Part shown: piece after piece, positions 12,226-64,000 of the stretch
Position numbering within the stretch: position 1 is the stretch's first letter
Layout: each line of letters starts with the position of its first letter
Virus record (IMG/VR): IMGVR_UViG_3300032132_000748
Source of the DNA: a virus
Lineage: Duplodnaviria > Caudoviricetes
DNA: 64,000 nucleotides
Reading direction: 5' to 3' (one strand)
Notes under the pieces: generated by a model
The model's input: the letters and a program-made list of their open reading frames with translations, nothing else
The model's database searches: none
Told to the model about the DNA's origin: nothing
Program-made: the position numbers and the translations under genes

Positions 12226-15200
12226 ATGTTAAGTCTAGCTTTGATCGTTAAAAATGAAGAGAAAAACCTGGCACGGTGTTTAGATTCTGTAGCCGGGCTT
12301 TGGGATGAATTAGTTATTGTTGATACCGGATCTACGGATCGAACGGTAGAAATAGCAAAGGAGTATACGGATAACATCCACCATTTTAAGTGGGTGGATC
12401 ATTTCGCTAAAGCTAGAAATTTTTGTTTTAGCAAATGCACTCAACCTTGGGTTATGTGGATTGATGCGGATGATATTTTAAAGCCAGAAGATGTTAAGAA
12501 CATTAGAGAACAATTTCAGGAAATCATAGCCACTAAACCTCACGTAGATTACATTTTAATTAACTATCATTATTGGGTAGACCCACCAAGTGCATCAGGG
12601 ACCCCAAGAGCAACACAACTTCGAGAGCGAATAATCAGAAAAGAAAAGGCTATTTGGACGGGCCGATGCCATGAGCATATTATGATTGATTGGTTGAGGA
12701 GCGAACCGATTAAAGATGCATACGTTTGGCACTTACGCGATGCTCATGATGTTCAGATGGATCAAAACAGAAATATCAAGTTAATGAAATTAGGAATTAA
12801 AGAAGATCCATCAGCCAGAAACCATTTTTACTTGGGAGACGAATTTACAGGAGCAGGACAACGAGAAGAGGCTATAAAAGTCTACAAAAAAGCTTATGAA
12901 CTAGCGACAAATCCCGATCTTCTTTTTCAGGCTGCTTGGAAGATAGGTAAAAGTTATCGAGACAAGGGAAATGTAGCGGCAGACGCAGTAAAAGATTCAA
13001 AGAAGTCTGAAACTTTTCGAAAAAATAAAAACTTCGATAAAGCACTGTACTGGTTTAAGAAATCCTTAGAACACCATATTGCCTATCGTGAACCACTGCT
13101 TGCTATGGCTGGTGTTTACTCTGGAAGAGAGGACTACTCAAAAGCTGCGTTTTGGCTTGAAGCGGCCTTGCAGATAGACAAGCCGGAAAATCCCGCTATG
13201 TGTATTTTAGATAGTAGATATACCTTCGAACCCTATAATGCACTAGCAAAAGCATACTTTAAGATGAAAGAGTATGACAAGGCTGTTGAAGCCACGATGA
13301 AATTATACGAATATACTAAACAGCCCCATCTTTTAGGAGATATTAGCTTAATAAAATCAACAAAAAGAAAAACCTATAAAAGACCTACGAAAACTACTAG
13401 ATTGAATTTAGGTAGTGGACCAAAAACTATAGAGGGTTTCATAAATTGCGATCTATTCCCGGCCCCTGGTGTTGATGAAATATTCAGCATGGATGATATC
13501 CCGTATGCAAATTGCAGTGTCGATGAGATATCCAGTGAGCACGCTCTCGAACACTTACCTAGATTAGACGGAGAAAGAGCCCTCCGAGAAATGGCAAGGG
13601 TTCTTAAAAAGGGCGGGAAACTTACCATCAAAGTTCCTGATCTAGAGGAGTGCTGCCGTAAGTTCCTAGAACGACCTCACTTGCAGGATAGTTGGTATAT
13701 GCACACACTCTATGGAGTGCAGGATTTTAGAGATGATCCTCATAATGTTTTCCCTGAAAAGATTAACTACGGACAAATACACTATACAGGGTTCACTGAA
13801 CAAAGATTTCGGAAGCTCCTTACGGAGAATGGCTTTATTGTAGATAGGATGTGGAAATATGACGGATTCGATACCCCAAGCTTAGGCGTAGAGGCCCATA
13901 TACCCAATATTCCAGAAGCAGAACAGAAGAAAATTGCCTTTATCAACAATACGTTAATGCCAAGATATCTAAGCTATGGGGATTATTGGGTTGATGCCTT
14001 CAAAGCGTCAGGACACTCTGTAACAGAATTTAAATACGAAGAAATATCTACATTATCAGATGAGTATGATATGTATTTCTTTATAGAAGCAGATTATCGA
14101 TATGACCCAGAATCAATTCCGTTACATGCCCATCCAAGAGTGCTCTATACTCAGGAGAACCCCCCTCAAAAACAACTTAGTCACTTTGATCTGATAGCTA
14201 CCCCCTTCATGGATAAGTCAGAGAGTTATGGCAAAGCAGGGCACTCTACGGTAGTGTTATCAAATGATAATCATTTACAGCAAGTAAACACTCTATTAGA
14301 GTTAAATATTGAAAGCCTTAATAGAAAACAACCGGAGATAGTTGCTAAAACTGACACAGTAGACGTTATAATACCAAGCTATAAAAGTTGCAAATATCTG
14401 AAACTGGCTGTTGAATCAGTTAGGAGAAATAGTAAAAACTATAACTTAATAGTAGTTAATAGCGGCGATGACTCAGAGACACGAGAGTGGCTACAAAAAC
14501 AAGATGATATTCATTTAATAGATTCAATTGAAAGAATGAGTTTTAGCCAAGCAGTTAATAAGGGGATAAGAAGAAGTTCCAATGACGTAGTAATACTAAA
14601 TAATGATACTATTGTTGGTAAAGATTGGCTAAAGAATTTGAGAACAAGCCCTTTTGATATAACTAATCCTTATAGCAACTGTGACGTTGGCTGGATCCAT
14701 AACAGAATTCTCAATGTTGACGGAGTGGACTTAAAGCCCGATATGACTGTCGATGATGTCAATGTGGAAGCTTTGTATGAAACAGGTAGCCCTCATGTTG
14801 ATACTCGTAATAGAGATTGGGTTGCTTTTTACGCTACTTATATAAAAAGAGAAGTAATAAACGCTACTGGATTACTTGATGAGAAATTTATAAATGGAGG
14901 CGAAGATTTTGATTATTGCCGCCGAGCAAATTTATACGGTTTTACTTGTGGCCATGTATTCTCTAGTTGGGTCTTCCATTTTGGCGGGAAAACAAGAAAA
15001 GTAAGTGAAAATGATAATTATGTTCAACACCATGAAGAAGATAAGTTAAATCAAAAATATATGCACCACAAAGCCAAGGAGACTGTAGTTATTTATACAG
15101 GTCCAGCTTGGGAATCATGGACTGTTGAGAATATCAATACTACAGGTATTGGAGGGTCTGAGACTTGTGCTGCTCTGTTGGCCAAACAATTTGTAGAAAA

Positions 15201-16164: not shown

Positions 16165-16683
16165 ATGCGACCACAATCATCCGCCTTTAGGCCCCAAACA
16201 TACAAAGACTGGCTAAATGAAGTTAATTTTTCATCTAAACCCCAGGAGATGGTTCAGGCTGGGCTAATGGCTGGAAAACTTGCCCCAAATAAACAGACTG
16301 CTCAACACGATCTAGCACTAGTTCTTGCAGAGAAATATCGGCAAGAAGTTCAACGTGCTCGCGGAAACTCCATGGTTGTTAAAAGCATCAAGGCTAAATT
16401 CGATGAAGTAGCTAGAGATTTATTCAAAAGCAAGTTTTCCTCAATGCTAAACTACGTTATGCAGAATGAACCAAGCTTTGACCCACAAGCTTCGAGAGCC
16501 GCTAAAGGGGTGGCCTTAGGTTTTATAGGAGCAAAAACTACTCGTGATTCTGACGGACGTGTAAGAAATCCTCTAGGTTTCATAAAGAAGCCTTCAGGCA
16601 AAGGAGCAGGAGGAAAAGCTGCTCCGGGACTAGGATTTCTTGAGGAAGATAATTCCACAAATGGTTCGTTAGGTTTCTTATAA
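16165..16683 (+). CDS. hypothetical protein with four LGF motifs
   Basis: TATAAT plus GAAGGAG SD; ALGF, PLGF, GLGF, SLGFL-stop. Confidence 0.7.
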   Translation: MRPQSSAFRPQTYKDWLNEVNFSSKPQEMVQAGLMAGKLAPNKQTAQHDLALVLAEKYRQEVQRARGNSMVVKSIKAKFDEVARDLFKSKFSSMLNYVMQNEPSFDPQASRAAKGVALGFIGAKTTRDSDGRVRNPLGFIKKPSGKGAGGKAAPGLGFLEEDNSTNGSLGFL

Positions 16684-19055: not shown

Positions 19056-19535
19056 ATGCCTTTGACAACGTCAACCCAACTACCTTTTCCAATCTCTGAT
19101 GACACTACAGCGTCAGCAACTTATCGAGCCGCTCTGAGCTTCACAGCACCTTCAGGGCAATTTTTAGAACTTCGAGGTTCTGGATCAAGCATCTCTACCA
19201 TAACTAAAGTAGTGGTTGAGTTGGGAGCAAGCGATACCCTTACGGTTACGAAGCAATCCGCAGCTAGCACTGGCGGAACCTCAAGTGACGCAACTAATGT
19301 TCCTTTGGATGCAACAAATGCTGCCGCTAATATGGTCGTTAGAACTTATACTGCGGCTTCAACAGCAGGCGCTGCTGTAGGTGATATTGCTGTTTTAATC
19401 GGAACTAGTTTTATTTTTGATTTTGGCTCGGGTAGTAAACAAGGAGTTATGTTAAATGCAGCCACCGAAACCCTTGGATTTGACCTAGCTACTGGCACCA
19501 CAGTCACTGGGTATGTAGAGTGGACAGAAGCTTAA
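19056..19535 (+). CDS. Ser/Thr/Ala-rich beta protein, probably structural
   Basis: directly follows the repeat protein; ends GYVEWTEA. Confidence 0.6.
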   Translation: MPLTTSTQLPFPISDDTTASATYRAALSFTAPSGQFLELRGSGSSISTITKVVVELGASDTLTVTKQSAASTGGTSSDATNVPLDATNAAANMVVRTYTAASTAGAAVGDIAVLIGTSFIFDFGSGSKQGVMLNAATETLGFDLATGTTVTGYVEWTEA

Positions 19536-19582
19536 ATGTCCGCCAATTAGAATTTACTTCATAACTAGTTATAATTTAGAGT

Positions 19583-21821: not shown

Positions 21822-22229
21822 ATGAGTTTATTAGCCAATTACATGCACAGCCCTGTTGGATTCGGAGAGTATGGCAATGCTCCCACCGCAGGATCTGTTA
21901 TTTCAAACGCAACTTTAGTTGATATCACAAGCCCTGCCGAGCTTAAAGGCGGTAAGATAACCGCTGGTCTTTCAGTTAAGAAAGACGGTGATCAGTTCAA
22001 AGCCGGAGTCGAATTACCTTTAGTCGGTTTTATTGGTTTGCACGCTTTTAAAGGTGATGAGCCTGTAACTGTTAGCTTACCGGTTCCCGGTCCAGCACAA
22101 CCTATCCTGGGTGCAAATGTAGCTTTACAGTTCATTCCGCCTGAGAACAAGCCTCTTGATATGAAAATGATTGCTGGAATTGGCTTAGGTATAGTAGTTG
22201 TTCTTCTTCTTCTCAAGAAAAAGAAATAG
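21822..22229 (+). CDS. Gly/Phe-motif protein with C-terminal TM and KKKK
   Basis: VGFGEYG near the N-terminus; IAGIGLGIVVVLLLLKKKK; TTGCTT-17-TAGTAT-6-ATG. Confidence 0.7.
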   Translation: MSLLANYMHSPVGFGEYGNAPTAGSVISNATLVDITSPAELKGGKITAGLSVKKDGDQFKAGVELPLVGFIGLHAFKGDEPVTVSLPVPGPAQPILGANVALQFIPPENKPLDMKMIAGIGLGIVVVLLLLKKKK

Positions 22230-28136: not shown

Positions 28137-28856
28137 GTGATTGATCTTGACGTTCTCGCTACCGAAGATTTTCGGTATAGCCCCCTCACCTGTAAAAATG
28201 CTGAAGCAATTATAGGATGCATTGCAAGTACGGAGGCCGTCGAAACTTTTCGGAGGACACTCCATAGCGATGACTATAAAGAGATAGAAACCTTTGGAGA
28301 GGACCTAATCAAAAAACACCATAAAGACGGTGTTCATTTTGATTACGATATCACCTTAGCTGCTTTGGCTATTATTCTTGTGGAATCCGATGATGAATTT
28401 CCTGAGAAATTTTTAGCGGAGTTGGCAGGCTTATACGAAGCTAAGAAAGCCCCTGAACTTTTTTGGTCTAGAAAAGTCGCTGCAAAATTGCTCTCTCTTA
28501 AAAAGAGGCTTTCGGATAAGGTTAAGGCCAAGGTCCGAAAGCATTTTCCTGATGCAATCTTTTTGCCGGTCGATGAGATGGGACTGATATTTGATCCTCC
28601 TCCACACCTCGCTAAAGCCAAAGTACTTCAGCAACTTATTATTGCTGTATCAGTCAAGGAAGGCATGGTCAAAGTCATCGATCATGATGGACAAGTGTTT
28701 GATTTGCCTGAAGAAGCCATATTGGCATCGCATAAAGACGCTGACATCACTAAGCCCTACTTAACTGATTATGGTCAGACACTAGGCTTTGGTAAATATG
28801 GTGAGTGCGAACTAGAAGGTGATTGGGTTTTTGCTCAAAGCAAGACTACTGCGTAG
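28137..28856 (+). CDS. hypothetical protein (start revised to GTG after the tmRNA)
   Basis: AGGAG SD before GTG 28137; the annotated start lies inside the tmRNA. Confidence 0.65.
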   Translation: MIDLDVLATEDFRYSPLTCKNAEAIIGCIASTEAVETFRRTLHSDDYKEIETFGEDLIKKHHKDGVHFDYDITLAALAIILVESDDEFPEKFLAELAGLYEAKKAPELFWSRKVAAKLLSLKKRLSDKVKAKVRKHFPDAIFLPVDEMGLIFDPPPHLAKAKVLQQLIIAVSVKEGMVKVIDHDGQVFDLPEEAILASHKDADITKPYLTDYGQTLGFGKYGECELEGDWVFAQSKTTA

Positions 28857-29523
28857 TCTTTTCTGCCTTCTTTCTAGCTTTGGATTTCTTTTTAGCAGCT
28901 ACAAAGGGCGTCTGTTCTCTAATAACGGCCCTTTGAATCTTTATCATTAAGATAGCCACAATCATAAGAAATAGCCCGGAACCTACTCTTAGGAGTAGGT
29001 TCATGGTGCCTACGTCTATTTTGTGAGTTTTAAGATGCTGAAAGCGTCGATCTCCTTTGAATTTGTTCGCATAGGCGATACTAAATTCATCGTGACCATT
29101 TTTACACCCAGAAGCCCATATAGGCCCCACATCCCGAGGTAGCTGGGTAGGTTTTTTTACAAAACCACTTCTATTTATCGATCCCCAGACTTTTCGAGGC
29201 TTTCCGAAGGCATCTTCTTTGCCCATAGGCCAGTAGATATCTGCATTACAGTAGCTTCTGTAAAACATATCATTAATCAACGCTTTCTTTAGTAAAAGAT
29301 TAAATTCTGGAGTTCCTGGTCGATGCCTTGTTGTTCTTGCGAGACGAGTACCTAGAGATTTAAATCTAGCTACCATTAATCGAATGTAGTCCATTCGAGC
29401 AGCGTCATTGTCCAGTTTCTTTTGGAAACCTTGCTGCATCTTGTTCATCTTTACAGCATGGCCTGCTGTGAGTGCAACATTAGTGACTGCTGATCCGATT
29501 AGTGCTACTGCGGGTAATACCAT
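28846..29523 (-). CDS. membrane protein, paralogue 3 of tandem trio
   Basis: shared domain PG..F...L....Y...C...W...CK; N-terminal hydrophobic stretch; C-terminal TM and basic tail. Confidence 0.75.
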   Translation of the reverse strand: MVLPAVALIGSAVTNVALTAGHAVKMNKMQQGFQKKLDNDAARMDYIRLMVARFKSLGTRLARTTRHRPGTPEFNLLLKKALINDMFYRSYCNADIYWPMGKEDAFGKPRKVWGSINRSGFVKKPTQLPRDVGPIWASGCKNGHDEFSIAYANKFKGDRRFQHLKTHKIDVGTMNLLLRVGSGLFLMIVAILMIKIQRAVIREQTPFVAAKKKSKARKKAEKTTQ

Positions 29524-29527
29524 AGTG

Positions 29528-30340
29528 TTATTTTACTTTTTTCCTGCTAGGTTTTGATTTTTTAATTAGAACTTTTCCTTTTTTAGCGGCAGAGGTCGCA
29601 GCTTCTTTACTAGCTGCGGCCTTTTTTTCATGCCATTTCTTTTTCCTAATTCCTCGCATTTTCCCTAGCTTCTTTTTTTGTTTCAAAGTGTAACCCATTA
29701 GTAGCATTATAATACCACCGTTTACTAATAATCTAGTGATGGTGTTGCGTTGTGCATTGTCTTTATCTTTCTGAATATCTCTTTCAAGTAAAATATTTTG
29801 TTTTTGGTCTTCTGCCCACGCCTGTAGTGCGGCTTTATGTAGTTCTTTGCACGCCTCTGCCCATTTAGGCCCGAGCGCTTGATCTATGTGGGGAGAGTAG
29901 GCGGTTAGTTTTCCTGACCTGCTTATTGACGCGATAACTTTTCTAGGCTTCCCTGGAGGGGCAGGCCCATAAAGCTCAAGAGCACATTTTCCCTTATAGC
30001 CAACTTCGGCACTTAATTTTTTAACAAGCATTTGATCAAATTGCTCACTACCAGGTTTTAATCCTAGAGCAGATAGATAAACCATACCTGATCCAACTCG
30101 TTGTAGAGACGAGATGAATACTTGCTGGTTGTATCGTTTCAGGAGAGCCGCAAGGAACGCCTTTTTAGCTGCCTTTCTCTCTTCCTTTTTTCGCTTAGCG
30201 CCTATGTATACATCAACGATAGCTCCAATAGCTGCTCCCGCAACAAGACCTACCGGACCAAAAAGGTATCCAATACCTGCACCTACAGTTGCGGCGGAAA
30301 CAGGACTATCTTCAATACCATTTAGTTCAAAATTGGACAT
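29528..30340 (-). CDS. membrane protein, paralogue 2 of tandem trio
   Basis: glycine zipper GAGIG..GLVAGAAIGA; GYKGKC..KWAEACK; TM and Lys-rich tail. Confidence 0.75.
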   Translation of the reverse strand: MSNFELNGIEDSPVSAATVGAGIGYLFGPVGLVAGAAIGAIVDVYIGAKRKKEERKAAKKAFLAALLKRYNQQVFISSLQRVGSGMVYLSALGLKPGSEQFDQMLVKKLSAEVGYKGKCALELYGPAPPGKPRKVIASISRSGKLTAYSPHIDQALGPKWAEACKELHKAALQAWAEDQKQNILLERDIQKDKDNAQRNTITRLLVNGGIIMLLMGYTLKQKKKLGKMRGIRKKKWHEKKAAASKEAATSAAKKGKVLIKKSKPSRKKVK

Positions 30341-31111
30341 TTATACCTTTATCTTCGTGGAGTTTATAAATACTATAATACCTATTATTAAAAATATAAT
30401 AGCAAATACTGCTTGGACTACCCTCTGTCCTTTTTTAAGGGAAGCTTGAAAATTTTCTAATTCTTGAAGTCTCCCTTGCTGGATCAATAAGTCTGTATAT
30501 GCAATTATCCATCGATCTCGGGCATTTTTACATTGCACATACCAAAAGGTTTGGAGATTGGGCGGGACACTAGCTGTTCCTGGGGTGAATTTTCTACCAT
30601 TACCTGTGATGTAAAAGGAGACGGGCCTATTTTTACTAGGCTTACTTCCTGGCTGCCAGACAGTAGCATTACAATTACCTCGATACCCTATTTTTTGAAA
30701 CAAAGTATCATACAAGACCTTCTCAAAATCAGCACTTGTTGGGTCTATCCCATGCTGCTCAATAATGGCAAGACCTGTCTCCTCTACTTCAGCTAATATG
30801 CCAGAAACTGATGTTTGGGTGGCTTCCTCTCCCTTAAGACGACGCTCTCTTTTCTTTCTTTGCTTTTTTTGCGTCATAAACGACCAGGCAGCAACGCCTA
30901 TTGTACCTACAAGCTCAATAACCGCTGCCCAGCCTGATGCTGCATTAAAGTTTGTAACTGATGTTGCGGCATGACCACCAGCGGCTATGGCGGCTGAAAA
31001 GGAAGCCTGCTTCCCTATTTGGACAACGGTGCCCGCCACTGAGCCTATAAGCTTTTTTTGCTTAAATGCTGCAGCTTGTTCTGCTTTTTTTTGTTCCCAA
31101 AGTGTTGCCAC
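30341..31111 (-). CDS. membrane protein, paralogue 1 of tandem trio (start revised to GTG)
   Basis: GAGG SD before GTG 31111; GYRGNC..FWYVQCK; C-terminal TM. Confidence 0.75.
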   Translation of the reverse strand: MATLWEQKKAEQAAAFKQKKLIGSVAGTVVQIGKQASFSAAIAAGGHAATSVTNFNAASGWAAVIELVGTIGVAAWSFMTQKKQRKKRERRLKGEEATQTSVSGILAEVEETGLAIIEQHGIDPTSADFEKVLYDTLFQKIGYRGNCNATVWQPGSKPSKNRPVSFYITGNGRKFTPGTASVPPNLQTFWYVQCKNARDRWIIAYTDLLIQQGRLQELENFQASLKKGQRVVQAVFAIIFLIIGIIVFINSTKIKV

Positions 31112-31192
31112 ATGCGCCTCTACAAATAATTTTATCAAAATTGCTTGCTATATGCATACAAGATTTGCTAATCTACTGTTGGAGAGTTAATT

Positions 31193-34580: not shown

Positions 34581-34799
34581 ATGAAAGACTATTTTAGAGA
34601 ATTTTTAATACCCAATCGACCCGGCTTTGGAAGTGCTTCAGCACCCAGCGCACCAAAGAGCGTTGCTACTAATTCCGAAAAGACTAAGGCACCCATGAAA
34701 TCACGTATTATGTTGGCTGCCGGACTCGTCGGAGTAGGCTTAATTTCTTGGAAAGCAAGCAAGTGGCACACGATCATTACTTCCTCCTCAGACAAATAA
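34581..34799 (+). CDS. small RPGFG-motif membrane protein
   Basis: NRPGFGS; TM IMLAAGLVGVGLISW; TATAAT upstream. Confidence 0.6.
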   Translation: MKDYFREFLIPNRPGFGSASAPSAPKSVATNSEKTKAPMKSRIMLAAGLVGVGLISWKASKWHTIITSSSDK

Positions 34800-43673: not shown

Positions 43674-45275
43674 ATGTCAAAAGAAATGCGATTTAATGAT
43701 GAAGCGCGCAGTTTGGTTTTCAAGGGTGTCCAAAAATTGGCTCAAGCAGTCAAGACAACCTTAGGCCCTACTGGCAGAAATGTCATTATCAAGAAAACAG
43801 GAAAAGCCCCCTTCATAACAAAGGATGGGGTGACCGTCGCTAGGGAGGTTGAACTATCTGATGAGTTCGAAAATCTAGGTGCGGAATTAGTTAGGGAGGT
43901 TGCGAGTAGAACAGCTCTCGCCGCTGGCGATGGAACAACTACAGCAACAGTTCTAGCTGAAGCTATATTAGAAGAAGGCGCTCGCCATCTCACAACAGGA
44001 GTTAACACTACTGAGCTTAAGCGAGGAATTGATTTGGCAGTTAAAGCCGTAAGATCTGAGCTTGATTCATTATCTCAGCCAGTTAAGTCAAAAAAGGAGA
44101 TGTTTCAAGTTGCTAGTATATCCGCGAATAATGATAGTGAAATAGGAGAGTTACTGTCGGAGCTTATTGATGAGATCGGTTCGGACGGAGTAGCTACCAT
44201 AGAGAAGAGCGGTACTACTGAGACCTTCATAGAAAAGGTTGACGGACTTCAACTTCGCGGTGGGTATCTTACTCACTATTTTGCTAACAAAGAGAATGGA
44301 GAGGCTGTATGGGATGATCCTAGGATCCTTATCTATCAAGGACGAATTACCGCAGCTAGGGACTTAATCCTTGGCAACGGCAACGGCTTTCTGGAGAAAG
44401 CTCTTTCCCCTGCCGAAGGTAGACCTATTGTAATCATTGCAGATGGTGTTGACGGTGAAGCTCTTCATGCACTTGTCATGAACCGAGTACAGGGTGGGCA
44501 AAAAGTTCTTGCGGTTAAGACCCCATTTAGCTTGGATAAAGCTGAGACGCTACAAGATGTTGCAACATTAACTGGTGGAAAGGTGTTTTCACGAGAAGCC
44601 GGACATAATTTGCACAAAATAGAGCTAAGTGACTTAGGGGAGGCCGAAAGAATTATCGCCACTAAAGACCGAACGCTTATCCTTAAAGGAAAGGGCAAGC
44701 CAGCCGATATTACTAAGCGGGTAGAGAATCTACGAAGCCAAGCAGCAGAGGCCGATTCTGAGGAGAAGAGACGTTCTCTCAAAGAAAGGGCGGCTAAATT
44801 GGATTCAGGTATTGCTGTAATTAAGGTTGGAGGTTCTTCGGAAGTAGAACTACGAGAACGTCACGATAGAGTTGAGGATGCTTTGTTTGCTACTCAAGCC
44901 GCTGTTGACGAAGGTATTGTTCCTGGCGGCGGTGTTGCGCTTGTAAGATGCATTAAAGTCGTAAGAGCGCTTAAACTAGAAAACGATTCCCAAATGGTAG
45001 GAGCTAGTATTATTGAAAGAGCACTTTCGGCCCCTCTTAAGCAAATCGCAAACAATGCAGGTATCTCAGGCGAAGTTGTTTTGGAAAAAGTTCTAGAGCA
45101 AAAAGGGAACTTCGGATATAACGCCAGAAAGGGGACTTACTGCGATTTAGTAAAAGCTGGAATTATAGACCCCGCAAAAGTTGCTAAATCAGCGATTGAA
45201 AATGCAGCTAGTGTTGCCGGACTTCTTTTGACTACGGATGTTCTTTTGGTAGAAACTACCACTGAATCAAGCTAA
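43674..45275 (+). CDS. groEL: chaperonin GroEL
   Basis: TLGPTGRNV, ITKDGVTVA, GDGTTTATVLA, GIVPGGG, GIIDPAKV; no GGM tail. Confidence 0.96.
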   Translation: MSKEMRFNDEARSLVFKGVQKLAQAVKTTLGPTGRNVIIKKTGKAPFITKDGVTVAREVELSDEFENLGAELVREVASRTALAAGDGTTTATVLAEAILEEGARHLTTGVNTTELKRGIDLAVKAVRSELDSLSQPVKSKKEMFQVASISANNDSEIGELLSELIDEIGSDGVATIEKSGTTETFIEKVDGLQLRGGYLTHYFANKENGEAVWDDPRILIYQGRITAARDLILGNGNGFLEKALSPAEGRPIVIIADGVDGEALHALVMNRVQGGQKVLAVKTPFSLDKAETLQDVATLTGGKVFSREAGHNLHKIELSDLGEAERIIATKDRTLILKGKGKPADITKRVENLRSQAAEADSEEKRRSLKERAAKLDSGIAVIKVGGSSEVELRERHDRVEDALFATQAAVDEGIVPGGGVALVRCIKVVRALKLENDSQMVGASIIERALSAPLKQIANNAGISGEVVLEKVLEQKGNFGYNARKGTYCDLVKAGIIDPAKVAKSAIENAASVAGLLLTTDVLLVETTTESS

Positions 45276-46245
45276 TCTGAATTGAAGCTCTATACTCTTC
45301 TCTGAAGGGTTTAACAGAGGCTCTGAGGGATACGTTAAGCCAAGGCACACCGCGTATTCCTCGGAGCCCTATTATTTTAATCTGACCTTTTATTGTTGAT
45401 CCATTGTTAGCAAAATTATCTACCCGAAGATTTAACTTCATAGAGCCGGAGACGGTCCAGGTTTCTCCTGTATAGATGTTTCCTCTCGGAGGTTTGATGC
45501 CAAAAGATAATCTCCGTGATTCAGAATGTAAAAAACTAGAGTCAGCAGGATCAGTTATTATTCTATCTTCTTCGGCGGATACGCTGAAACGCCAACCGCT
45601 CCAACCTATTTTTCCGGTATTATGAACATGAACAGGACCTAGAGAAAAAAGCTCATGTTTTCTGCCTATAGTGTGGTATACGACACGAGAACCCCCTTTT
45701 TCTACGGGAAAGCTGTCAAAAAAACTTACTCGACGTTCCCACCACCTACTGCCGTAATCACTACTTCGAAGATTATAGTCGTCCATTCTTCTCTTCAGTG
45801 CCATAGGTTGAAGATCTAGTTGATTCCAGTAGTCTCGAAGCATCCTCTTGTAGTATTTACCTGCGAATCTTTCTATCTGTTTATACACAACTCCATGGAA
45901 ACCCTCGTACTGAGTAATTACTACTTCTCTAGGTCTATTTGCATATTCGTTCCAATAGTCAGGTAGATGGGGGATTGGTATTCTTATACGAAAATCATAA
46001 TCAAGAGATTGAAGCGCAGGCTCTATTTTCTTTTCTTCTCTCCTAACATCTGGACGAGAATAGTCGGAGCCGCGTGTTCCAAGACTTGCTAGTAAAGTTT
46101 GATTTAAATCAAGCCTGATGGGAAATGAGGGGGCCGCATAATCGATTGGGGTGGTATCTCTACCGCTAGACTCTTCCTGCGTGTATCCCGGCGAAGAAAA
46201 TACACATATAAATAGGACTGAAACGAAAAATCTAAACCATGACAC
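45256..46245 (-). CDS. exported protein, possibly outer-membrane
   Basis: signal-peptide-like N-terminus; C-terminal amphipathic beta strands ending in W. Confidence 0.6.
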   Translation of the reverse strand: MSWFRFFVSVLFICVFSSPGYTQEESSGRDTTPIDYAAPSFPIRLDLNQTLLASLGTRGSDYSRPDVRREEKKIEPALQSLDYDFRIRIPIPHLPDYWNEYANRPREVVITQYEGFHGVVYKQIERFAGKYYKRMLRDYWNQLDLQPMALKRRMDDYNLRSSDYGSRWWERRVSFFDSFPVEKGGSRVVYHTIGRKHELFSLGPVHVHNTGKIGWSGWRFSVSAEEDRIITDPADSSFLHSESRRLSFGIKPPRGNIYTGETWTVSGSMKLNLRVDNFANNGSTIKGQIKIIGLRGIRGVPWLNVSLRASVKPFREEYRASIQISLIQW

Positions 46246-46271
46246 GATATGCTACTATTATTATAGCTAAG

Positions 46272-46565
46272 ATGTCAATTAATTCGTGTGAGAAATGTGG
46301 AATAAGCTTAATTGGAGCAAAATGCCATATATGCCAAGCAACGGACGCCCTAGGAACAAAATTCATTTCGGGTATAGTAGAAGGATTAGCTTTATTTTTA
46401 GGCGCAAATAGTTCTGAAATTAAAAACTGCCCCTCCTGTACCATATCTTGGGATGAAATCCTTAAAACCGGACGAATGGGTTGTAAAGATGACTATAACC
46501 ACTTCAAAGAAAATTTAGAACCTATTTTGTTAAAATTCCATGGTGCTATAAGACATAAAGCATAA
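46272..46565 (+). CDS. McsA-like zinc-finger protein (start revised to MSIN)
   Basis: CEKC..CHIC, CPSC.ISW.EI...GRMGCKDDY..F...LEPIL.KFHG...H. Confidence 0.7.
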   Translation: MSINSCEKCGISLIGAKCHICQATDALGTKFISGIVEGLALFLGANSSEIKNCPSCTISWDEILKTGRMGCKDDYNHFKENLEPILLKFHGAIRHKA

Positions 46566-46591
46566 TTAATTGTTATAATACTGATAGCATT

Positions 46592-47170
46592 ATGGAACGT
46601 CCCGGATTTTTAAATGGTTTTGAAGGTTTTACCCCAAGACAAACGCAATTAAGTGCTCCTAGAAGAAGCAGACTTAATGGTTCTAGAACACTAGGGGCAT
46701 TTGGTAAAGGCTTTGTAGCACCTCCCCCACCCCCAGAACCATCACCTGCGGCCTTCCGCAGTGGGCAATGGGTTTGTGATGATCCAAAACCGCCTTCAGA
46801 TGCAAATAACTACTTTCACTGCTGTCCATCAGGATGGACTAAAGTGCCTTTTGGAGATACTCGTCCTTGTAAAGGAAAAGATAGAGAAATAGAAGTTTGT
46901 GGCCCTCTTCCGCAAGGAGCTTCGCCGGAAGAAGCAACCTGTTGTGAACAGATAAAAGAATGGGTTCCATCAGATCCTTCTGGTGGAGATCCATGTGCTG
47001 CCGCTGCGGCTAGTACAGGACAGGCTGTTCCCGGAATTCCAGAAACTATTTTAGCTCCTGATATTGTCGTTCCTCAAGATACCGGAGGCGGGGGTGGGAT
47101 TTTTGTGGTTCTGGGGATTGGTTTTGTATTATTGACGGGAATAACCATCTTCGTTAAAATGAGAAATTAA
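46592..47170 (+). CDS. RPGF-leader Cys-rich protein with C-terminal TM
   Basis: MERPGFLNGFEGFTP; 8 Cys in two repeats; TM then KMRN. Confidence 0.75.
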   Translation: MERPGFLNGFEGFTPRQTQLSAPRRSRLNGSRTLGAFGKGFVAPPPPPEPSPAAFRSGQWVCDDPKPPSDANNYFHCCPSGWTKVPFGDTRPCKGKDREIEVCGPLPQGASPEEATCCEQIKEWVPSDPSGGDPCAAAAASTGQAVPGIPETILAPDIVVPQDTGGGGGIFVVLGIGFVLLTGITIFVKMRN

Positions 47171-47628
47171 TTTCTTTCAATAATTTTTACAAAAAGAGGG
47201 TTCGACATAGCAAAAATGCTTCTGTTTTTCCTTATACCCTTCACTATTTCACGAGTATCTTTTTGAGTTAGTTTCTTTAAGGCAAGACCTGATATAAGAC
47301 CGCTACGATTCCAACCTGCTTGGCAGGTACTTAAAACATTTTTTCCCTTGAGGATATTCTTAATAGTTTTATTAGCCGCAAATTTAGCGAGCTTGATCGT
47401 ATCTCTAAGTTGCTTTCCCTTAAGTTTAGTGCTATCGTCCATAGGAACATAAAGTCTTTCCGCCCTTAAAAACTGCTCATTAGATTTTCTCAGTATTTGG
47501 GGCTGAAATTCTTGGGCTGCAAGAATAATAAGATCTATATTATTTCTTGCTATTATGTAGGGAATTTCTCTTTGTCCAGCTTGATGAAGCTCGCCTCCTG
47601 ATTTAGGATGTTTAAATATTAAGCTCAT
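47167..47628 (-). CDS. dual-specificity/tyrosine phosphatase
   Basis: PMDD acid loop; CQAGWNRSG (CX5R); SNPLF. Confidence 0.85.
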   Translation of the reverse strand: MSLIFKHPKSGGELHQAGQREIPYIIARNNIDLIILAAQEFQPQILRKSNEQFLRAERLYVPMDDSTKLKGKQLRDTIKLAKFAANKTIKNILKGKNVLSTCQAGWNRSGLISGLALKKLTQKDTREIVKGIRKNRSIFAMSNPLFVKIIERN

Positions 47629-47629
47629 T

Positions 47630-48598
47630 TTAACCCTTCTTTTGGGATAGTTTTATTATTCCAAAAACAACTATTGCTGTAATTACAAGTTTTGTCAAAT
47701 CGTGTGATTTGTATTCACCAAGACCTGTGTGACCGCTAAAACCGCCGAACAAAGTATTTTTAAGCCAACTAAATAATCCCCCAGTATCTTCAGCAGGTGC
47801 TGGGGGCGGTGGTGCAGGTGCAACTGAATTACTTGGGGGAGGTAGGGGTCTAGCAACTGGTTTTGCAGTTGTTCTATTTATAGCCTGTCTGGTTTCAAAA
47901 TCAGAAACAATCGATTCTACCTGCTGTGCTCTTGAGGGTGCTTGTTTTCTAGCACGAGTAGGTAAACCGGTAGGCATCCCTCCTCCTGTATACGCAGAAG
48001 GGGGGGCCATCATAGCCACCCTTGGCATAGATGATACCTCCTTTGATTCTGCTTCCAGTTGCTGTAGTTCTGCTGCCATCTTTGCTCTAATTGCGGGATC
48101 TTCTTCAGGCGGCGCTTGTTGTGGTTGAGCTTGTGGTTGAGCTTGTTGAACTTGTTTAGGCTGTGCTCTTTCTCTAAAGCAGTCTGGGCACGTATTTTTA
48201 TTGCAAGGTCCAGGATAGCCCGCTGATTTATATTGACTACAGCTTTCCCAACCACTAGCTGGTGGATCAGGTAATTCCCGGAAAAGAGGATCATCGTCAC
48301 ATTCTTCTCCTGATTCTACTTCGCCTGGATCACAATCAGCCCCCTGACACGACTCTGACCATTTTGTCATTACCATACCTTCGGTAGGACACCTAGGATC
48401 TTGTACATAGAACTCTCCAGTTTTAGTATTTATTGCTTCAGGTGAGGTATTACCCCCGCCAGGGACTCCAGCAGGAGGTGCTCCTGGTGGTGGGGCAATA
48501 AATCCTTTTCCAAAGTAACCAAATCCTTTGAATGATGAATAAGTAACAGCTTTGGGGGTAAATCCTTCAAAGCCATTTAGAAATCCGGGTCTGCGCAT
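47630..48598 (-). CDS. RPGF-leader Cys/Pro-rich protein with C-terminal TM (start revised to MRRPG)
   Basis: MRRPGFLNGFEGFTP; FGKGFIAPPP; Cys-rich domain; TM then KKG. Confidence 0.75.
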   Translation of the reverse strand: MRRPGFLNGFEGFTPKAVTYSSFKGFGYFGKGFIAPPPGAPPAGVPGGGNTSPEAINTKTGEFYVQDPRCPTEGMVMTKWSESCQGADCDPGEVESGEECDDDPLFRELPDPPASGWESCSQYKSAGYPGPCNKNTCPDCFRERAQPKQVQQAQPQAQPQQAPPEEDPAIRAKMAAELQQLEAESKEVSSMPRVAMMAPPSAYTGGGMPTGLPTRARKQAPSRAQQVESIVSDFETRQAINRTTAKPVARPLPPPSNSVAPAPPPPAPAEDTGGLFSWLKNTLFGGFSGHTGLGEYKSHDLTKLVITAIVVFGIIKLSQKKG

Positions 48599-48663
48599 TT
48601 TATCCTTTGTCAATTAATTATAACATTCTCAGGTAATTTTGTATAATACTTACTGAGGTACAC

Positions 48664-49368
48664 ATGAGCAATTATCATTCTACAGGTAGCGCTGGTAGGT
48701 TAGGGAGCTTTGAGCTTCACGGAACATCAAATACATTTGGAAACCAAGGATTTGCCGGATTCGGCGCATTGAATGCAGCAGACAGTAACCAACTTCGCCA
48801 ACAATTGACCGCAGGCGGTGCCTGCAGGGTAGTTGATAGCCTAGCTGCACAGATTATTAACGATATTAATCGTGGTAATTTTGGCGCAGCCGAACAAAAA
48901 GCCGCTAACCTGGCAAGCCAAGCATCAGGTGCGGCTAGAAACCCTGGTCTTGCAATTTGTGCTCAAGCAGCACAGCAGGCGCAAAATGCGACCAATTTTG
49001 CCATCGTCAAAGAGAAACAGAAGAGAGGTGGCGGTGGCGGCGGAGCAGCCGCACAACAAGATTCAGGAGCCTCTGCAGGAGAAGTTCTAGGTGGTATTGG
49101 TTCTATTTTAGGCGCAGTTGCCGGACCTCTATCTAATATTTTTGTATCTCACCAAAACGCTCAATTACAGCTAGAACAGATTAAATCAGGAGGCAGGTTT
49201 GCTACACCTTTCAGCCAAGGACCTGCTGGCGGCCAAAACTTTCAGCCAGGAATACAACAATCTGCAGCCGCAGCACGGGGTAATAATAACACAGCCATCA
49301 TAGCTATCGTTGTTGGAGTTATTTTGTTAGGTGGTATGTTCATGATGATGAAAGGTAAAAAGGACTAA
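48664..49368 (+). CDS. RLGSFE-leader Gly/Ala/Gln-rich membrane protein
   Basis: TATAAT plus GAGGT; GRLGSFE; LGGIGSILGAV; C-terminal TM then KGKKD. Confidence 0.75.
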   Translation: MSNYHSTGSAGRLGSFELHGTSNTFGNQGFAGFGALNAADSNQLRQQLTAGGACRVVDSLAAQIINDINRGNFGAAEQKAANLASQASGAARNPGLAICAQAAQQAQNATNFAIVKEKQKRGGGGGGAAAQQDSGASAGEVLGGIGSILGAVAGPLSNIFVSHQNAQLQLEQIKSGGRFATPFSQGPAGGQNFQPGIQQSAAAARGNNNTAIIAIVVGVILLGGMFMMMKGKKD

Positions 49369-49375
49369 ATAACTA

Positions 49376-49996
49376 ATGGGCTACGAAAATATAGCTAGTT
49401 TAGGGAGACTCGGCTCATTTGAAAATGAGCTGGGAGGTATGTTCGATATGGTGTCCTCTGCCGGTGCAAACGTTAATGCCTCGGTAGCCGCCGCCGCACA
49501 ACCAACTGAACAACAACTACTTCAACAGCAATTAGCTGCTGAAAAGCAAGCCCATGCCGGAACATCAAAACAATTAGCGTCTAATCAGGCGATGGGAACT
49601 GCGTTAACTGGTATTGGTCAAATTGTTGGCGCAATAGGTGGCGTAGGCGCTCAATTTTTCCAAGCGCACCAACAAGCTAAACTTCAGAAAGCAATGATGA
49701 AGATGCAGCAAAACCAGCCCCAGCAATTCGCCCCTCAACAAGTTTTTATACCACCCCCACCCCCATCTAAGCTACCTCTTATTTTAGGTGGCCTGGCTGT
49801 TGTCGGAGCAATAGGGTTTGTCATCTACAGTCAAAATAAGGATGATGGTTATGGCGGTGGTTATGCACCCCCAGCACAGGGACCGGTGACAGCAGTTGTA
49901 GGGGGCCAGCCCGTTTCACAACCATATTACCCCACACCACCCCCACCGAGAAGGCGTGTAATCCGTAGAAGACGGAAAAAGAAGCCTAAAAAATAA
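49376..49996 (+). CDS. RLGSFE-leader membrane protein with Arg/Lys tail
   Basis: GRLGSFE; LTGIGQIVGAI; TM; RRRVIRRRRKKK. Confidence 0.75.
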   Translation: MGYENIASLGRLGSFENELGGMFDMVSSAGANVNASVAAAAQPTEQQLLQQQLAAEKQAHAGTSKQLASNQAMGTALTGIGQIVGAIGGVGAQFFQAHQQAKLQKAMMKMQQNQPQQFAPQQVFIPPPPPSKLPLILGGLAVVGAIGFVIYSQNKDDGYGGGYAPPAQGPVTAVVGGQPVSQPYYPTPPPPRRRVIRRRRKKKPKK

Positions 49997-50283
49997 TGTT
50001 TGGACAAATTGATACATATAGCCCTACTCCCAAGAGTGGCGTACCTGAGTGGGCCGCAGGAACCGCTGCTATTATTGAAGCAGCAGCGCAACCAGCCGTT
50101 GACGCGTATGCTATTAATCAGAGAGCGGAAGTTAACGCTGAAAGAATAAAAGCTGGATTACCTCCGCTCTCTCCTATCCAGAGAAGAGTTGTAGCGGGAC
50201 CTCCAATACCAAAAAAACAAGAAGGTTTTGGCATTGGACCTATTATTTTAGCTGTTATTATAGTAGTATTACTTTTCCGGTAA
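49996..50283 (+). CDS. small membrane protein
   Basis: TAATG coupling; MFG start; C-terminal TM. Confidence 0.65.
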   Translation: MFGQIDTYSPTPKSGVPEWAAGTAAIIEAAAQPAVDAYAINQRAEVNAERIKAGLPPLSPIQRRVVAGPPIPKKQEGFGIGPIILAVIIVVLLFR

Positions 50284-50295
50284 GAGCCGGACTCT

Positions 50296-50586
50296 ATGGA
50301 TAAAGACAAAGCTTACAGCGAAATACTCAGACAGATTGATGTACTCAGAAAAAGGGGAATTCCTAACTCTGATGCAAAGATGATGCGCCTACGTATTAGA
50401 TTACGGGACATGTTGGAGCATAAAAAAAAGAGAGGTCTTCCTAAACGAAAAACTCTTGTGCCCAAGCTCACATCTATAAGGACAATGACTTTTCAAAATG
50501 TAGAAAAGGAAGACCTTAAGAAATATGCATATCTGGGGGTAGTAGTTGCTCTTGGTGGTATAGCTTGGAAGTTCTGGAAAGATTAG
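50296..50586 (+). CDS. small basic membrane protein
   Basis: C-terminal TM YAYLGVVVALGGIAW. Confidence 0.6.
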   Translation: MDKDKAYSEILRQIDVLRKRGIPNSDAKMMRLRIRLRDMLEHKKKRGLPKRKTLVPKLTSIRTMTFQNVEKEDLKKYAYLGVVVALGGIAWKFWKD

Positions 50587-50945
50587 GTTTTAGAAACACC
50601 TATTCTATTTCGACAGATATTCCATGCGATTGCAGCCCCTATAAGACCTGCAATAGCTGTAGATAGGATTAACATAGAAAACATTCCAGCCCTTGGTTTT
50701 CCGTATGGGGCGATGGAGTGTCTTAGCGCTCCCTGCAACGTGGAAACTTCAATCTCGGGCTGGATTAATTTCAGAGCTAGCTCATTGCTCCCAGAAACCG
50801 CAGTATCTGGGGGCGATGGTGAAAGGGCAGCAGCCAGATCAATGATGATTTCAGGTGTTACGTTACTTTCAATTACGATCTCTGCTCCTGTTGCAGATAA
50901 GCCTGTTGCAAGCATATCACGAGCACTTCCGAGTTGGGTTTTCAT
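50583..50945 (-). CDS. membrane-anchored protein (start revised to MKTQLG)
   Basis: TATAAT-6nt-ATG; IAPYGKP then TM. Confidence 0.65.
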   Translation of the reverse strand: MKTQLGSARDMLATGLSATGAEIVIESNVTPEIIIDLAAALSPSPPDTAVSGSNELALKLIQPEIEVSTLQGALRHSIAPYGKPRAGMFSMLILSTAIAGLIGAAIAWNICRNRIGVSKT

Positions 50946-51024
50946 GTAAGTATTATAGCAAAAAATAATAGCATCGACGAGAATTACGCCGATGCTATTG
51001 CACATTAAATGTATTAGTTAAGAA

Positions 51025-51495
51025 CTAAAACCAGCCACCGAAGTAGCCACTAACACCTGGATCTACTGCAGTTGGGTCAACTCCGACCTCAGCACCGGCA
51101 TCGGTCACTGCATCAGCGACTTTCTCTGCCTCAACAGACGCAGCATCCAAAGGAAGCGGGATACCTGGATGAACAGCAGGAACTAACTTAGCCAGTTTGC
51201 GCTCAATCCAACGTTTTCTCCATTGGCAATACCAACCACAAGTAGGTCTTGCTTGAAACCTTGCAAGTTTTCTGGAAAGGATAGCTGCTTTATCCGCACC
51301 TTCGCGACGGAATTTCTTTTTCATTTTATGCTTAAAATGTCTTTTTCTGGCTTTTCTATTTCCTACAAACGGAGCCATCTTTCCGCGTCCACGACCTCTT
51401 CCACGACCGCGTCCACGACCTCTTCCACGACCGCGTCCTCTTCCAAAATCACCGAATGCCCAGTGATCGAACCCTTGTAAATTTCCTGGTCTCAT
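51025..51495 (-). CDS. RG-repeat basic protein with Gly/Phe termini (start revised to MRPG)
   Basis: AGGAG SD; MRPGNLQGF..FGDFG, (GR)10, ends VSGYFGGWF. Confidence 0.7.
   Translation of the reverse strand: MRPGNLQGFDHWAFGDFGRGRGRGRGRGRGRGRGRGRGKMAPFVGNRKARKRHFKHKMKKKFRREGADKAAILSRKLARFQARPTCGWYCQWRKRWIERKLAKLVPAVHPGIPLPLDAASVEAEKVADAVTDAGAEVGVDPTAVDPGVSGYFGGWF
51383..51444. repeat. 24-nt tandem repeat (about 2.5 copies) encoding poly-GR
   Basis: CCGCGTCCACGACCTCTTCCACGA x2 plus a partial copy. Confidence 0.85.
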
Positions 51496-52799: not shown

Positions 52800-53555
52800 T
52801 TAATCGGGGTTTTTCTTAGGACGACCCCGTTTTTTCGGTTTTTCATCAGGGTTCTTTCTAGGCCGCCCTCTTTTTTTCGGCGTATCTTTAGCCTTTGGTG
52901 GGCGTCCCCTTTTCTTCGGGGTTTTCTTTGCATCTGTGGGATTCTTTCTAGGCCGTCCGCGTGGACGTTTTTCTTTCGGATCCTTCTTAGGATGTTTTCT
53001 AGGCCGTCCGCGTGGACGTTTTTCTTTCGGATCCTTCTTAGGATGTTTTCTAGGCCGTCCGCGTGGACGTTTTTCTTTCGGATCCTTCTTAGGGTTCTTT
53101 CTAGGCCGTCCGCGTGGACGTTTTTCTTTTGTTTTAGTGCCGGAGATTTTTTTAGGTCTGCCCCGCTTTCTTCCTGTGCTCTTTTTTGGTGTTCGCCGAA
53201 GTGGAATCTTCTCTTTTACTAAAATCTTTTTAGCGGCAGCTAACTTATCACTAACACTCTTTGGGGGCCTCCCTTTTTTTCTTGGAGCAAACCATATACG
53301 CTTGGCAGCTCTCAAACTCATTGTTGCCAAGGAAGAGTCTTTCCGTTTAAGCGCATTTTTTGGTTTGCGCTCTTTAGTCTTTTTGGGCTTCTTTTCTTGT
53401 CTAATTTTTTTCCCAATCTTAGCTATAGGGTTTTTTCGACGTTTTTTCATATTTTTCATAAAATCCTTATCTAGACGCCTATTTCGTTTAGGCACCCGTG
53501 TAGGTTCGGGAAACTCAGGAAAATCGTCATAATAGTCAAATTCGTCTGATATCAT
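52800..53555 (-). CDS. AT-hook-rich, highly basic DNA-binding/condensing protein
   Basis: nine GRP cores (mostly RGRP[RKP]); GAGGT SD; short acidic N-terminus. Confidence 0.8.
   Translation of the reverse strand: MISDEFDYYDDFPEFPEPTRVPKRNRRLDKDFMKNMKKRRKNPIAKIGKKIRQEKKPKKTKERKPKNALKRKDSSLATMSLRAAKRIWFAPRKKGRPPKSVSDKLAAAKKILVKEKIPLRRTPKKSTGRKRGRPKKISGTKTKEKRPRGRPRKNPKKDPKEKRPRGRPRKHPKKDPKEKRPRGRPRKHPKKDPKEKRPRGRPRKNPTDAKKTPKKRGRPPKAKDTPKKRGRPRKNPDEKPKKRGRPKKNPD
52945..53130. repeat. 51-nt coding tandem repeat (about 3.6 copies)
   Basis: CTAGGCCGTCCGCGTGGACG recurs at 52948, 52999, 53050 and 53101. Confidence 0.9.
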
Positions 53556-58843: not shown

Positions 58844-59047
58844 ATGTCCCTAAACTTGGAAGATATAAAAATTATTTGCCCAGACTGCCTCGGAGAAGAT
58901 TTTCTTGCAAGATGTACAACTTGTCAGGGGGTGGGTCTTATAGTTTACGCAAGTGTTGTTCTCGCGTTAGAGGACGTTGGTAAGAAAAAACAATGTCCGG
59001 TTAGGCACGAAACTTCCCAGAGAGAGTTTCCCATGCTATTATCATAG
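58844..59047 (+). CDS. small zinc-finger protein (start revised to MSLN)
   Basis: CPDCLG..CTTCQGVG; TTGCAC-17-TAAGAT-7-ATG. Confidence 0.55.
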   Translation: MSLNLEDIKIICPDCLGEDFLARCTTCQGVGLIVYASVVLALEDVGKKKQCPVRHETSQREFPMLLS

Positions 59048-59372
59048 CTGCTCCGCCGACTACACAGTACCAGTTTTTCTTTAATTTATCGGTTAGTGTT
59101 CCTTGGGATCCTCTGTATTTCCAAACCGCAGCAAGGGTCCCTATAGTCATCAATGCTCCTGCAGCACCACCTATTAAGGTAGTTCCTGTTCCATCAAAAG
59201 CACCGTAGCCGCTATAGATGGAGCGAGGATTAGCCGGAGTTACTAATCGTTTTTCCTCCGCTTCTGCTTCTGCTTCACTAAAACCATATCTCCAAAGACC
59301 TATTTGGCCATCAAAGGGATTTATTACCGCGCTTCCTAGGCGCTGTTGTGTGTTTCCTAAGGTTGTATACAT
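59001..59372 (-). CDS. LG/FDG-motif membrane protein
   Basis: TLG..RLGS..FDG..YSGYGAFDG; two hydrophobic segments. Confidence 0.65.
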   Translation of the reverse strand: MYTTLGNTQQRLGSAVINPFDGQIGLWRYGFSEAEAEAEEKRLVTPANPRSIYSGYGAFDGTGTTLIGGAAGALMTIGTLAAVWKYRGSQGTLTDKLKKNWYCVVGGAAMIIAWETLSGKFRA

Positions 59373-62911: not shown

Positions 62912-64000
62912 ATGATTACTGCCGAATATATATGGATTGATGGGTCAAAACCCACTAGAAAATTACGATCAAAGACAAAGATTCTCCAAGATGCTACTTG
63001 GAGTATAGACGCGGGTGGGAAGCCCCCTGCTTTGGATGACAAAGTCGAGTCTGCTGCGCCAAAGCACTATAAATTACCTGAATGGGGTTTTGATGGATCA
63101 AGTACAGATCAGGCGACTGGAATAAATTCGGATTGTATACTGAAGCCCGTTAGAGCAATAAGAGATCCTTTTAGAAATAACAGCTATAAGTTCCCTGGTT
63201 CTAATCATCTATTAGTGCTGTGCGAAGTTTTTGATTCAAACGGTAATCCCCATGAAACAAATACAAGAAGACAGGTAGCTGAACTAGCTGAAAAGTATGC
63301 AGATCAGAAGTGGCTGTTTGGTATGGAACAAGAATATACTCTCTATTCCAAAGGTATTCCTCTTGGATGGCCCGAACGCGGGCCTGCACAGCCACAAGGT
63401 ATGTATTATTGTGGGGTCGGGACGGACGAAGTATCTGGGTATGAGCTGGTAGAGGATCATCTCGCAGCGTGTATACATTCTTCCCTTCCTATATCCGGGA
63501 GAAACGCCGAAGTAATGCCAGGGCAGTGGGAATTCCAAGTTGGTCCTGCTGGACCGTTAGAAGTTTCCGATTATCTCTGGTTGGCTCGTTACCTACTCTA
63601 TACTGCAGGTATTAAATATAGGGTCACCGTTAAATTAGACCAGAAACCTCTTGCAGGAGATTGGAATGGCGCAGGACTACATACAAATTTCAGTACTTTT
63701 GAGATGAGAAGTAATGGGGGTCTTGAAGCCTGCGAGCTTGCAGCCAAAGCCCTAGGAGAAAGCTTTACTAGCGAAGGATTCCCCAAAATATACGGAGAAG
63801 GCTTTAAGGATCGCTTAACGGGTAAGCATGAAACATGTTCCTGGGAAGAATACAGATACGGAGATGCAGATAGAACTGCCTCAGTAAGAATTCCGCTTCA
63901 CGTAGGTCGGGCCAAAAAAGGCTACATCGAAGATCGTAGACCAGGTGCTTGTGCTGATCCCTATGAAATTGTTAGCTACCTAATGGATACTTGTGCATAA
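62912..64000 (+). CDS. glnII: glutamine synthetase type II
   Basis: AEYIWIDG, LRSKTK, WGFDGSST, FGMEQEY, NAEVMPGQWEFQVGP, DWNGAGLHTNFST, RLTGKHET, EDRRP. Confidence 0.95.
   Translation: MITAEYIWIDGSKPTRKLRSKTKILQDATWSIDAGGKPPALDDKVESAAPKHYKLPEWGFDGSSTDQATGINSDCILKPVRAIRDPFRNNSYKFPGSNHLLVLCEVFDSNGNPHETNTRRQVAELAEKYADQKWLFGMEQEYTLYSKGIPLGWPERGPAQPQGMYYCGVGTDEVSGYELVEDHLAACIHSSLPISGRNAEVMPGQWEFQVGPAGPLEVSDYLWLARYLLYTAGIKYRVTVKLDQKPLAGDWNGAGLHTNFSTFEMRSNGGLEACELAAKALGESFTSEGFPKIYGEGFKDRLTGKHETCSWEEYRYGDADRTASVRIPLHVGRAKKGYIEDRRPGACADPYEIVSYLMDTCA

Follow-up and report, generated by a model that had tools for sequence, protein, structure and literature searches.

Known docking and maturation signals on viral membrane proteins

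The vaccinia virus membrane protein A17 is cleaved at a Gly site by the protease I7. Residues 1-16 of A17 dock through their tyrosines into the hydrophobic base cavity of the double-jelly-roll scaffold protein D13 (PMC13672803), and the poxvirus H1 protein, a dual-specificity phosphatase (DSP) of the virion, regulates I7 (10.1101/087270). In adenovirus, the N-terminus of pVI may occupy the hexon cavity, a contact that changes upon cleavage (PMC4246237), and in STIV the A55 protein has its C-terminal transmembrane (TM) helix in the internal membrane and its N-terminus touching the capsid (PMC10551542). How membrane-containing viruses choose their own over host membrane proteins is an open question, to which a portable tag on unrelated proteins would be a concrete answer. 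Here, we describe such a tag in a cluster of eight protein genes and a phosphatase gene (positions 46592-51495) within a 64-kb stretch of viral DNA (IMG/VR record IMGVR_UViG_3300032132_000748), referred to below as the window. The tag is real and portable, and the proteins that carry it probably belong to the virion membrane in a lineage of giant viruses. One tagged family, family G, is otherwise found beside jelly-roll-like genes, so the locus is also an indirect hint of tailless bacterial viruses well beyond the size of any in the literature consulted. No account of the tag or of the lineage was found in the literature searched, an incomplete library.

The locus resembles the vaccinia system in that a short aromatic N-terminal peptide is present on viral membrane proteins, as on A17, and in that a DSP lies within the cluster. 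On the other hand, vaccinia infects eukaryotes and has a single docking protein, whereas here no fewer than five unrelated families share the tag; the cluster proteins show no sequence homology to those of vaccinia, and no I7 homologue was seen. The GLG form of the tag looks like adenovirus cleavage sites such as IVGL/G, but adenovirus has no membrane and uses a Ulp1-like protease, a type that was not recognised in the window. Adenovirus protease sites had been among the precedents first invoked for the motif, and sites of that type, (M/L/I)xG(G|xG), are not enriched in the cluster (6 vs 4.9 expected). The topology that we infer for the cluster proteins is that of STIV A55, but STIV and the Halopanivirales have genomes of 17-31 kb, as against contigs of 0.37-0.86 Mb here, and no description of a shared tag on their membrane proteins was found in the literature searched.

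Two cultured viruses, P23-77 and SSIP-1, carry similar words. The anchored P23-77 proteins ORF18, VP19 and VP22 hold GLG-like words (5 vs 1.9 expected, p=0.03); no protease domain was detected in ten scanned open reading frames (ORFs) of this virus, and the similarity of VP19 to a segment shared by two of our families (C and D, below) is not significant. In SSIP-1, a virus with a genome of 44 kb and a T=49 architecture (PMC6260650), tail-anchored proteins are numerous and three of them contain GMG[DES] words; the virion also includes gp34, a transglutaminase-like protein. SSIP-1 has no convincing homologue of family G, the best match (E=0.0045) lying over a TM protein.

PGF-CTERM/archaeosortase and GlyGly-CTERM/rhombosortase signals have a layout of motif, TM helix and basic tail, which is also the layout around those copies of the tag that precede an anchor. 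Unlike these sorting signals and C39 leaders, the tagged proteins have no signal peptides and carry mostly N-terminal copies. The cluster leaders hold no GG consensus, contrary to the C39 double-Gly comparison made initially, and neither a sortase nor a C39-ABC transporter was recognised among the ORFs of the window. The tag appears to act like the docking and maturation signals of eukaryotic jelly-roll viruses, yet it is no member of those systems.

A hydrophobic-Gly tag and its carriers

The initial annotation rested on a broad motif, [FLY]x0-1G, at the start of most proteins of the cluster. The eight ORFs, the phosphatase and the quoted motifs were all found in place. As a pattern, the broad motif discriminates nothing: matches are found in 8/8 cluster proteins (7.7 expected) and in 67/73 of the others. 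What is real is a narrower tag, a hydrophobic residue and Gly, often followed by D, E, Q, S or N. It lies near the N-terminus or just before the membrane anchor, and it is frequently repeated. Within the first 40 residues, [FLY]G occurs 14 times in the cluster vs 4.2 expected (p=5e-4), with no enrichment in the 73 other proteins (30 vs 29.4), and a strict repeat form is found 5 times vs 0.5 expected; a core pattern taken without positional restriction (7 vs 4.5 expected) is not significant in the cluster. The patterns were picked after inspecting the window and then applied to outside sets. Among 35 distant orthologues from six distant loci, 10 carry the strict form (0.4 expected) and 17 the core form (4.4 expected). 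In the cluster, the ORF at 50296 is tag-free.

Three versions of the leader can be distinguished. The class-I leader, RPG[FYN]LxG[FY] ... [LF]GxFGKG, is carried by families A, B and H; the class-II leader, [RK]LGxFE ... [FL]G[DE], by C and D; and a minimal [LF]G[QD] by E and G. A second, pre-anchor copy is found in B and a few others. Family A (46592..47170, +) joins its leader (RPGFLxGF ... LGAFGKG), which recurs in six orthologues, to a Cys-rich domain and a C-terminal TM helix with basic residues. Family B (47630..48598, -) has a Cys/Pro-rich body and an amphipathic segment that runs to LFG, followed by a second tag, GLGE, a TM helix and a basic tail; its pre-anchor tags LFG and GLGE lie at 47714..47752 (-). 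Family C (48664..49368, +) has a leader of about 35 residues (RLGxFE ... GFxGLG[DE]), which is conserved though the body varies or is deleted, then an amphipathic segment and a C-terminal TM helix. Its paralogue, family D (49376..49996, +), combines an RLGSFE leader, an amphipathic segment, a late TM helix and an Arg/Lys-rich tail. Family E (49996..50283, +) bears the minimal tag MFGQ (LGQ in orthologues) and a C-terminal TM helix, and family F (50296..50586, +) is tail-anchored. Family G (50583..50945, -) has a QLGS tag, a small SNxTP...APYG domain and a C-terminal TM helix. Finally, family H (51025..51495, -) combines the leader RPGNLQGF, in a form identical to that of the B orthologues of two relatives (L026 and L027), with an RG repeat, a basic body and an aromatic-Gly C-terminus. 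The phosphatase (47167..47628, -) has an intact CX5R motif and lies inside the cluster in every syntenic relative examined.

No N-terminal hydrophobic segment was found in any of the eight proteins (0/8), in agreement with the reported absence of Sec signals. Late TM helices, first described for seven, are clear in six (46592, 48598-, 48664, 49376, 49996 and 50945-); the protein at 51495- has none, and the tail of that at 50296 falls under the hydropathy cut-off used, yet is conserved among orthologues. Many small single-TM proteins without a signal peptide are a feature of the membrane proteins of tailless jelly-roll viruses (Helvetiavirae/SSIP-1-like), and the cluster shows it. Pfam and PHROG searches of the cluster gave nothing significant except DSPc, for the phosphatase. 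The proteins are not orphans, as had been thought, since syntenic orthologues exist in about ten related virus contigs. Nor are their bodies mostly unrelated: A and B have about 45 N-terminal residues in common (E=1e-9), and C and D a leader and the middle amphipathic segment (E=5e-6). Family E probably has this segment as well, judging by a stretch that resembles it by eye in the E orthologue of L017. Altogether, the eight ORFs represent about five independent families.

TATAAT boxes precede several cluster start codons by 6-20 nt (e.g. 46550-46592 and 48617-48664), and those between B and C form a divergent pair. Counted overall, promoters are no more frequent than in shuffles.

Portability of the tag

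The portability proposed for the tag holds at the protein level, and it is most clearly seen in family G. We represented this family by 44 distant homologues with a median identity of 29%. In 16 of them LG[DQSTN] lies within the first 15 residues, vs 1.2-1.5 expected, and the distance from the tag to the conserved domain ranges from about 10 to 65 residues. Parsimony gives 12 changes of tag state, at least five of them on starred branches of a domain-only tree in which the tag labels are crude and the columns few. Untagged members begin roughly where the tag of tagged ones ends. In other families, leaders of about 35 residues outlast replacement or deletion of the body (P0005 in family C and the B protein of L009), and the family-F orthologue of L017 carries tags both at its N-terminus and before its TM helix. 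Because the spacing in family G is variable, the tag is gained and lost there and tags appear on F in L017, the tag reads as an optional, movable appendage, tied to the N-terminus and not to the folded domain. Gly codon use at the motif matches background, so the signal lies in the protein, and a DNA-level cause such as an internal AGGAG can be ruled out. An apparent MGQ start in L018 proved to be a miscalled start. The structure model of family G had no fold match, and the ESM Atlas returned nothing named.

Could there be no system at all, only gene duplication and Gly-rich low complexity? The chance level of the broad motif and the paralogy of A with B and of C with D would fit. We nonetheless regard this as very improbable: the family-G count, at 29% median identity, exceeds composition-preserving shuffles, which argues strongly against it, as do the repeated gains and losses of the tag and its presence on unrelated folds (E, G, H and the protein encoded before the candidate capsid in relatives, below). 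A different possibility is that aromatic/Leu-Gly repeats are self-sticking, in the manner of FG or LARKS sequences, and condense viral membrane proteins to the exclusion of host proteins with no dedicated reader. Repeats with a period of three residues in Gly-rich disordered termini would suit this idea, as would the tolerance of F, L, Y and M. It seems improbable, however, given that single minimal copies are fixed at residues 2-6 and that the flanking conservation is position-specific, both of which favour a receptor.

Jelly-roll-like operons in distant relatives

Distant homologues of family G are found in three compact operons of smaller viruses (L014, L015 and L019). Each operon encodes a basic protein whose 2-5 tandem [MLV]GE repeats are mostly spaced 8-9 residues apart; next come a beta protein of 182-189 residues and then more structural-looking genes, and family G lies 4-7 genes behind the beta protein. 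The predicted fold of the beta protein is a single jelly roll, in a weak model (pLDDT 60) whose best match, the SPV1 capsid (Z=7.8, inside the range of common folds), was listed together with HHIV-2 and HCIV-1; this is suggestive, not decisive, of a capsid-like protein. Because three other viruses have these homologues in jelly-roll-like morphogenesis operons, the earlier proposal that the tag routes proteins to a virion membrane gains indirect support.

Two further features of these operons may be mentioned. At the end of the structural operon of L014 (16562-17074, +) lies a gene for what looks by eye like a permuted papain-like protein (His ... CSE), with no Pfam match. The jelly-roll-like operon of L015 (15351-20375) adjoins bacterial genes (methyltransferase, P-type ATPase and RND efflux) and, for this reason, is probably a provirus.

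Possible docking, trimming or both

We give about an even chance to the reading that the tag is a docking element on internal-membrane virion proteins, with or without later trimming. On this view, the cluster proteins would reside in the internal membrane of a bacterial virus that is very large and probably of a tailless, jelly-roll type. Given that they have no signal peptide and a single C-terminal anchor, we infer that their tagged N-termini lie on the cytoplasmic face of the host membrane, and hence on the capsid-facing side of the viral membrane. There, hydrophobic-Gly-[D/E/Q/S/N] tags, one or more on each protein, would sit in a disordered Gly-rich terminus and most likely enter a hydrophobic pocket in the inner surface of the shell or of a scaffold. 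Docking of this kind would bring the many different membrane proteins made by the virus together in the forming particle and help to nucleate shell growth, with repeats of the tag adding avidity. Trimming at Gly by a papain-like (transglutaminase-fold) viral protease could follow, as with vaccinia A17 and adenovirus pVI. A binding element fits best with the long conserved leaders and tandem copies, and in particular the leaders of about 35 residues exceed what a cut site needs. That trimming occurs on top of docking is plausible in view of the likeness to IVGL/G, the untagged homologues that look pre-trimmed, the end of the L018 B protein at LFG and the embedded DSP. The tag could also serve as a practical marker for virion membrane proteins among dark ORFs.

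Several points weigh against docking in a jelly-roll virion. Besides the weakness of the jelly-roll model, simple paralogy (A/B and C/D) accounts for part of the sharing, and roughly one in two family-G homologues, among them those of L026 and L027, has no tag. The basic C-tails could point to the opposite membrane orientation. PRD1 and HCIV-1 show no tag enrichment, and the motif count of SSIP-1 (6 vs 4.6 expected) is not significant in aggregate. Finally, no capsid, packaging ATPase or protease gene was found in the window or its readable flanks, so the particle type here rests on relatives. Specifically, no FtsK/A32-type packaging ATPase, HK97 capsid, portal or terminase was recognised in the window; the sequence read amounts to about 9% of the contig.

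An alternative to docking deserves attention, although we think it unlikely. The tag could be purely a substrate motif, with a hydrophobic residue at P2 and Gly at P1, of a membrane-anchored transglutaminase-like Cys enzyme, with no docking to a shell. Such an enzyme could strip propeptides and anchors in maturation, or transfer the new C-terminal Gly to a lipid or Lys (transpeptidation). Papain-fold enzymes prefer a hydrophobic P2, as this alternative would have it, and the adenovirus sites IVGL/G and QRGF/G look alike. The start of untagged family-G members is where a cut would be expected in tagged ones, and one B orthologue, in L018, ends naturally straight after LFG and thus lacks a TM helix. 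SSIP-1 has a tail-anchored Transglut_core protein, gp34, in its virion and GMG[DES] words in gp34, ORF36 and gp53, and the conserved DSP recalls poxvirus H1, the regulator of I7 (10.1101/087270). Against this, the cluster shows no enrichment of the adenain consensus, and long conserved leaders with repeats of a three-residue period go beyond what cut sites require. Moreover, P23-77 has similar words with no protease domain detected, and no enzyme of the kind proposed was found in the stretches of L014, L015 and L019 that were read.

Docking and cutting can also be combined in a wider proposal, which we hold only tentatively and consider possible rather than likely. In a lineage of giant (0.7-0.86 Mb) tailless, membrane-lined bacterial viruses, dozens of membrane proteins unrelated to each other would share a single genome-wide hydrophobic-Gly code. 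Through it they would both be loaded onto a jelly-roll shell and be cut or covalently ligated by a transglutaminase-like enzyme, with control by a viral phosphatase as a possible addition. This would amount to a poxvirus-style assembly and maturation pathway inside a bacterial virus, although the maturation proteases of this viral lineage were thought to have been acquired on its eukaryotic side (PMC6260650).

Genome context and conservation of the locus

The window is a section of an 858,992-bp contig (ENA ERZ27248692, k141_839137) of an uncultured virus; the one run that contains this contig is a marine metagenome, and no RNA run with it was listed. The genes of the window are of the type found in very large bacterial viruses (GroEL, DnaJ, peptide deformylase, IF-3, McsA-like, GlnII and many short ORFs without assignment), and the content beyond its end is similar (SmpB, ClpS and RNA ligase). 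The last letter of the window is that of the GlnII stop codon (62912-64000) and virus-like genes run on along the contig; the scanned piece seems to have been trimmed at a gene boundary out of a longer molecule.

The order of the cluster beside GroEL is maintained in the related contigs with syntenic orthologues, and it is common to contigs of 859, 712 and 369 kb, which the cluster thus unites in one lineage. The latter two, L027 (MDTG01008174.1, 711,776 bp) and L026 (Ga0233415_10000002, 368,768 bp), share about 20 kb of synteny with the window and a GroEL of 69% identity, and may represent further giant genomes of this lineage. IMG/VR scans with family C, an E2-like gene, family G, the candidate capsid and GroEL as queries gave no syntenic relative, and three large IMG/VR records with a distant DSP had no family G. 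A match to L016 as a relative was spurious.

These neighbours raise the possibility that the tags are latent degradation or chaperone signals (ClpS N-degrons or ClpP-docking LGF loops) for the viral GroEL, DnaJ, McsA and ClpS. In favour are the constant position of the cluster beside GroEL/DnaJ, its McsA-like neighbour and the presence of ClpS in L011, L017 and L018. The chance of this is slight, since the tag is also found in compact operons, where the stretch that was read contains no Clp genes and the hydrophobic residue of the tag is often Met or Val, and since it is limited to anchored or basic structural-type proteins. The McsA-like gene is a fragment immediately upstream of the cluster (46239-46565, +; NCBIfam E=3e-11), and ClpS lies close to GroEL in L017 and L018 and downstream in L011.

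Outlying copies and neighbouring genes

The motif was also said to recur elsewhere in the window, and this holds in part. Likely members of the tagged set are a tail-anchored protein with FGEYG near its N-terminus (21822..22229, +) and a protein with RLGS and a pre-anchor SGYG/GLG tag, the latter kept in two orthologues (59001..59372, -). A small ORF with RPGFG and a hydrophobic tail (34581..34799, +) is a possible member. For 16165, 30340 and 31591 the resemblance is weak or the motif probably a different one. The first of these (16165-16683, +) encodes a soluble protein of 172 residues with four LGF[IL] words and no TM helix, and it probably stands outside the tag family. ClpP docking uses IGF/LGF loops, which these words resemble more closely than they do the membrane tag; the protein may be a ClpP activator or inhibitor.

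Other genes of the region are noted for completeness. Upstream of the cluster, a 329-residue protein (45256-46245, -) has a signal-like segment at its N-terminus and an aromatic beta pattern at its C-terminus; it gave no Pfam match, is kept beside GroEL in all syntenic relatives and is possibly an outer-membrane protein. In L017 (15038-16291, -) and L018 (16005-17582, -), a gene with a weak zinc-metallopeptidase-like match (ATLF, PF07737) adjoins the phosphatase; the window has no ATLF-like gene at the corresponding position. A protein with AT-hook-like (RGRP) repeats (52800-53555, -), kept in relatives, is a candidate DNA-condensing protein. Three neighbouring membrane proteins (28846-31138, -) have amphipathic Gly/Ala segments and basic tails; one of them has a weak PHROG match to 'internal virion protein' (E=0.0012), and a role in DNA delivery is possible. 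Just beyond the window, L011 encodes a core-like 550-residue protein with many RRNP repeats (12290-13942, -) and a membrane protein with an NGFGE tag behind a CxxC module (19076-19582, -).

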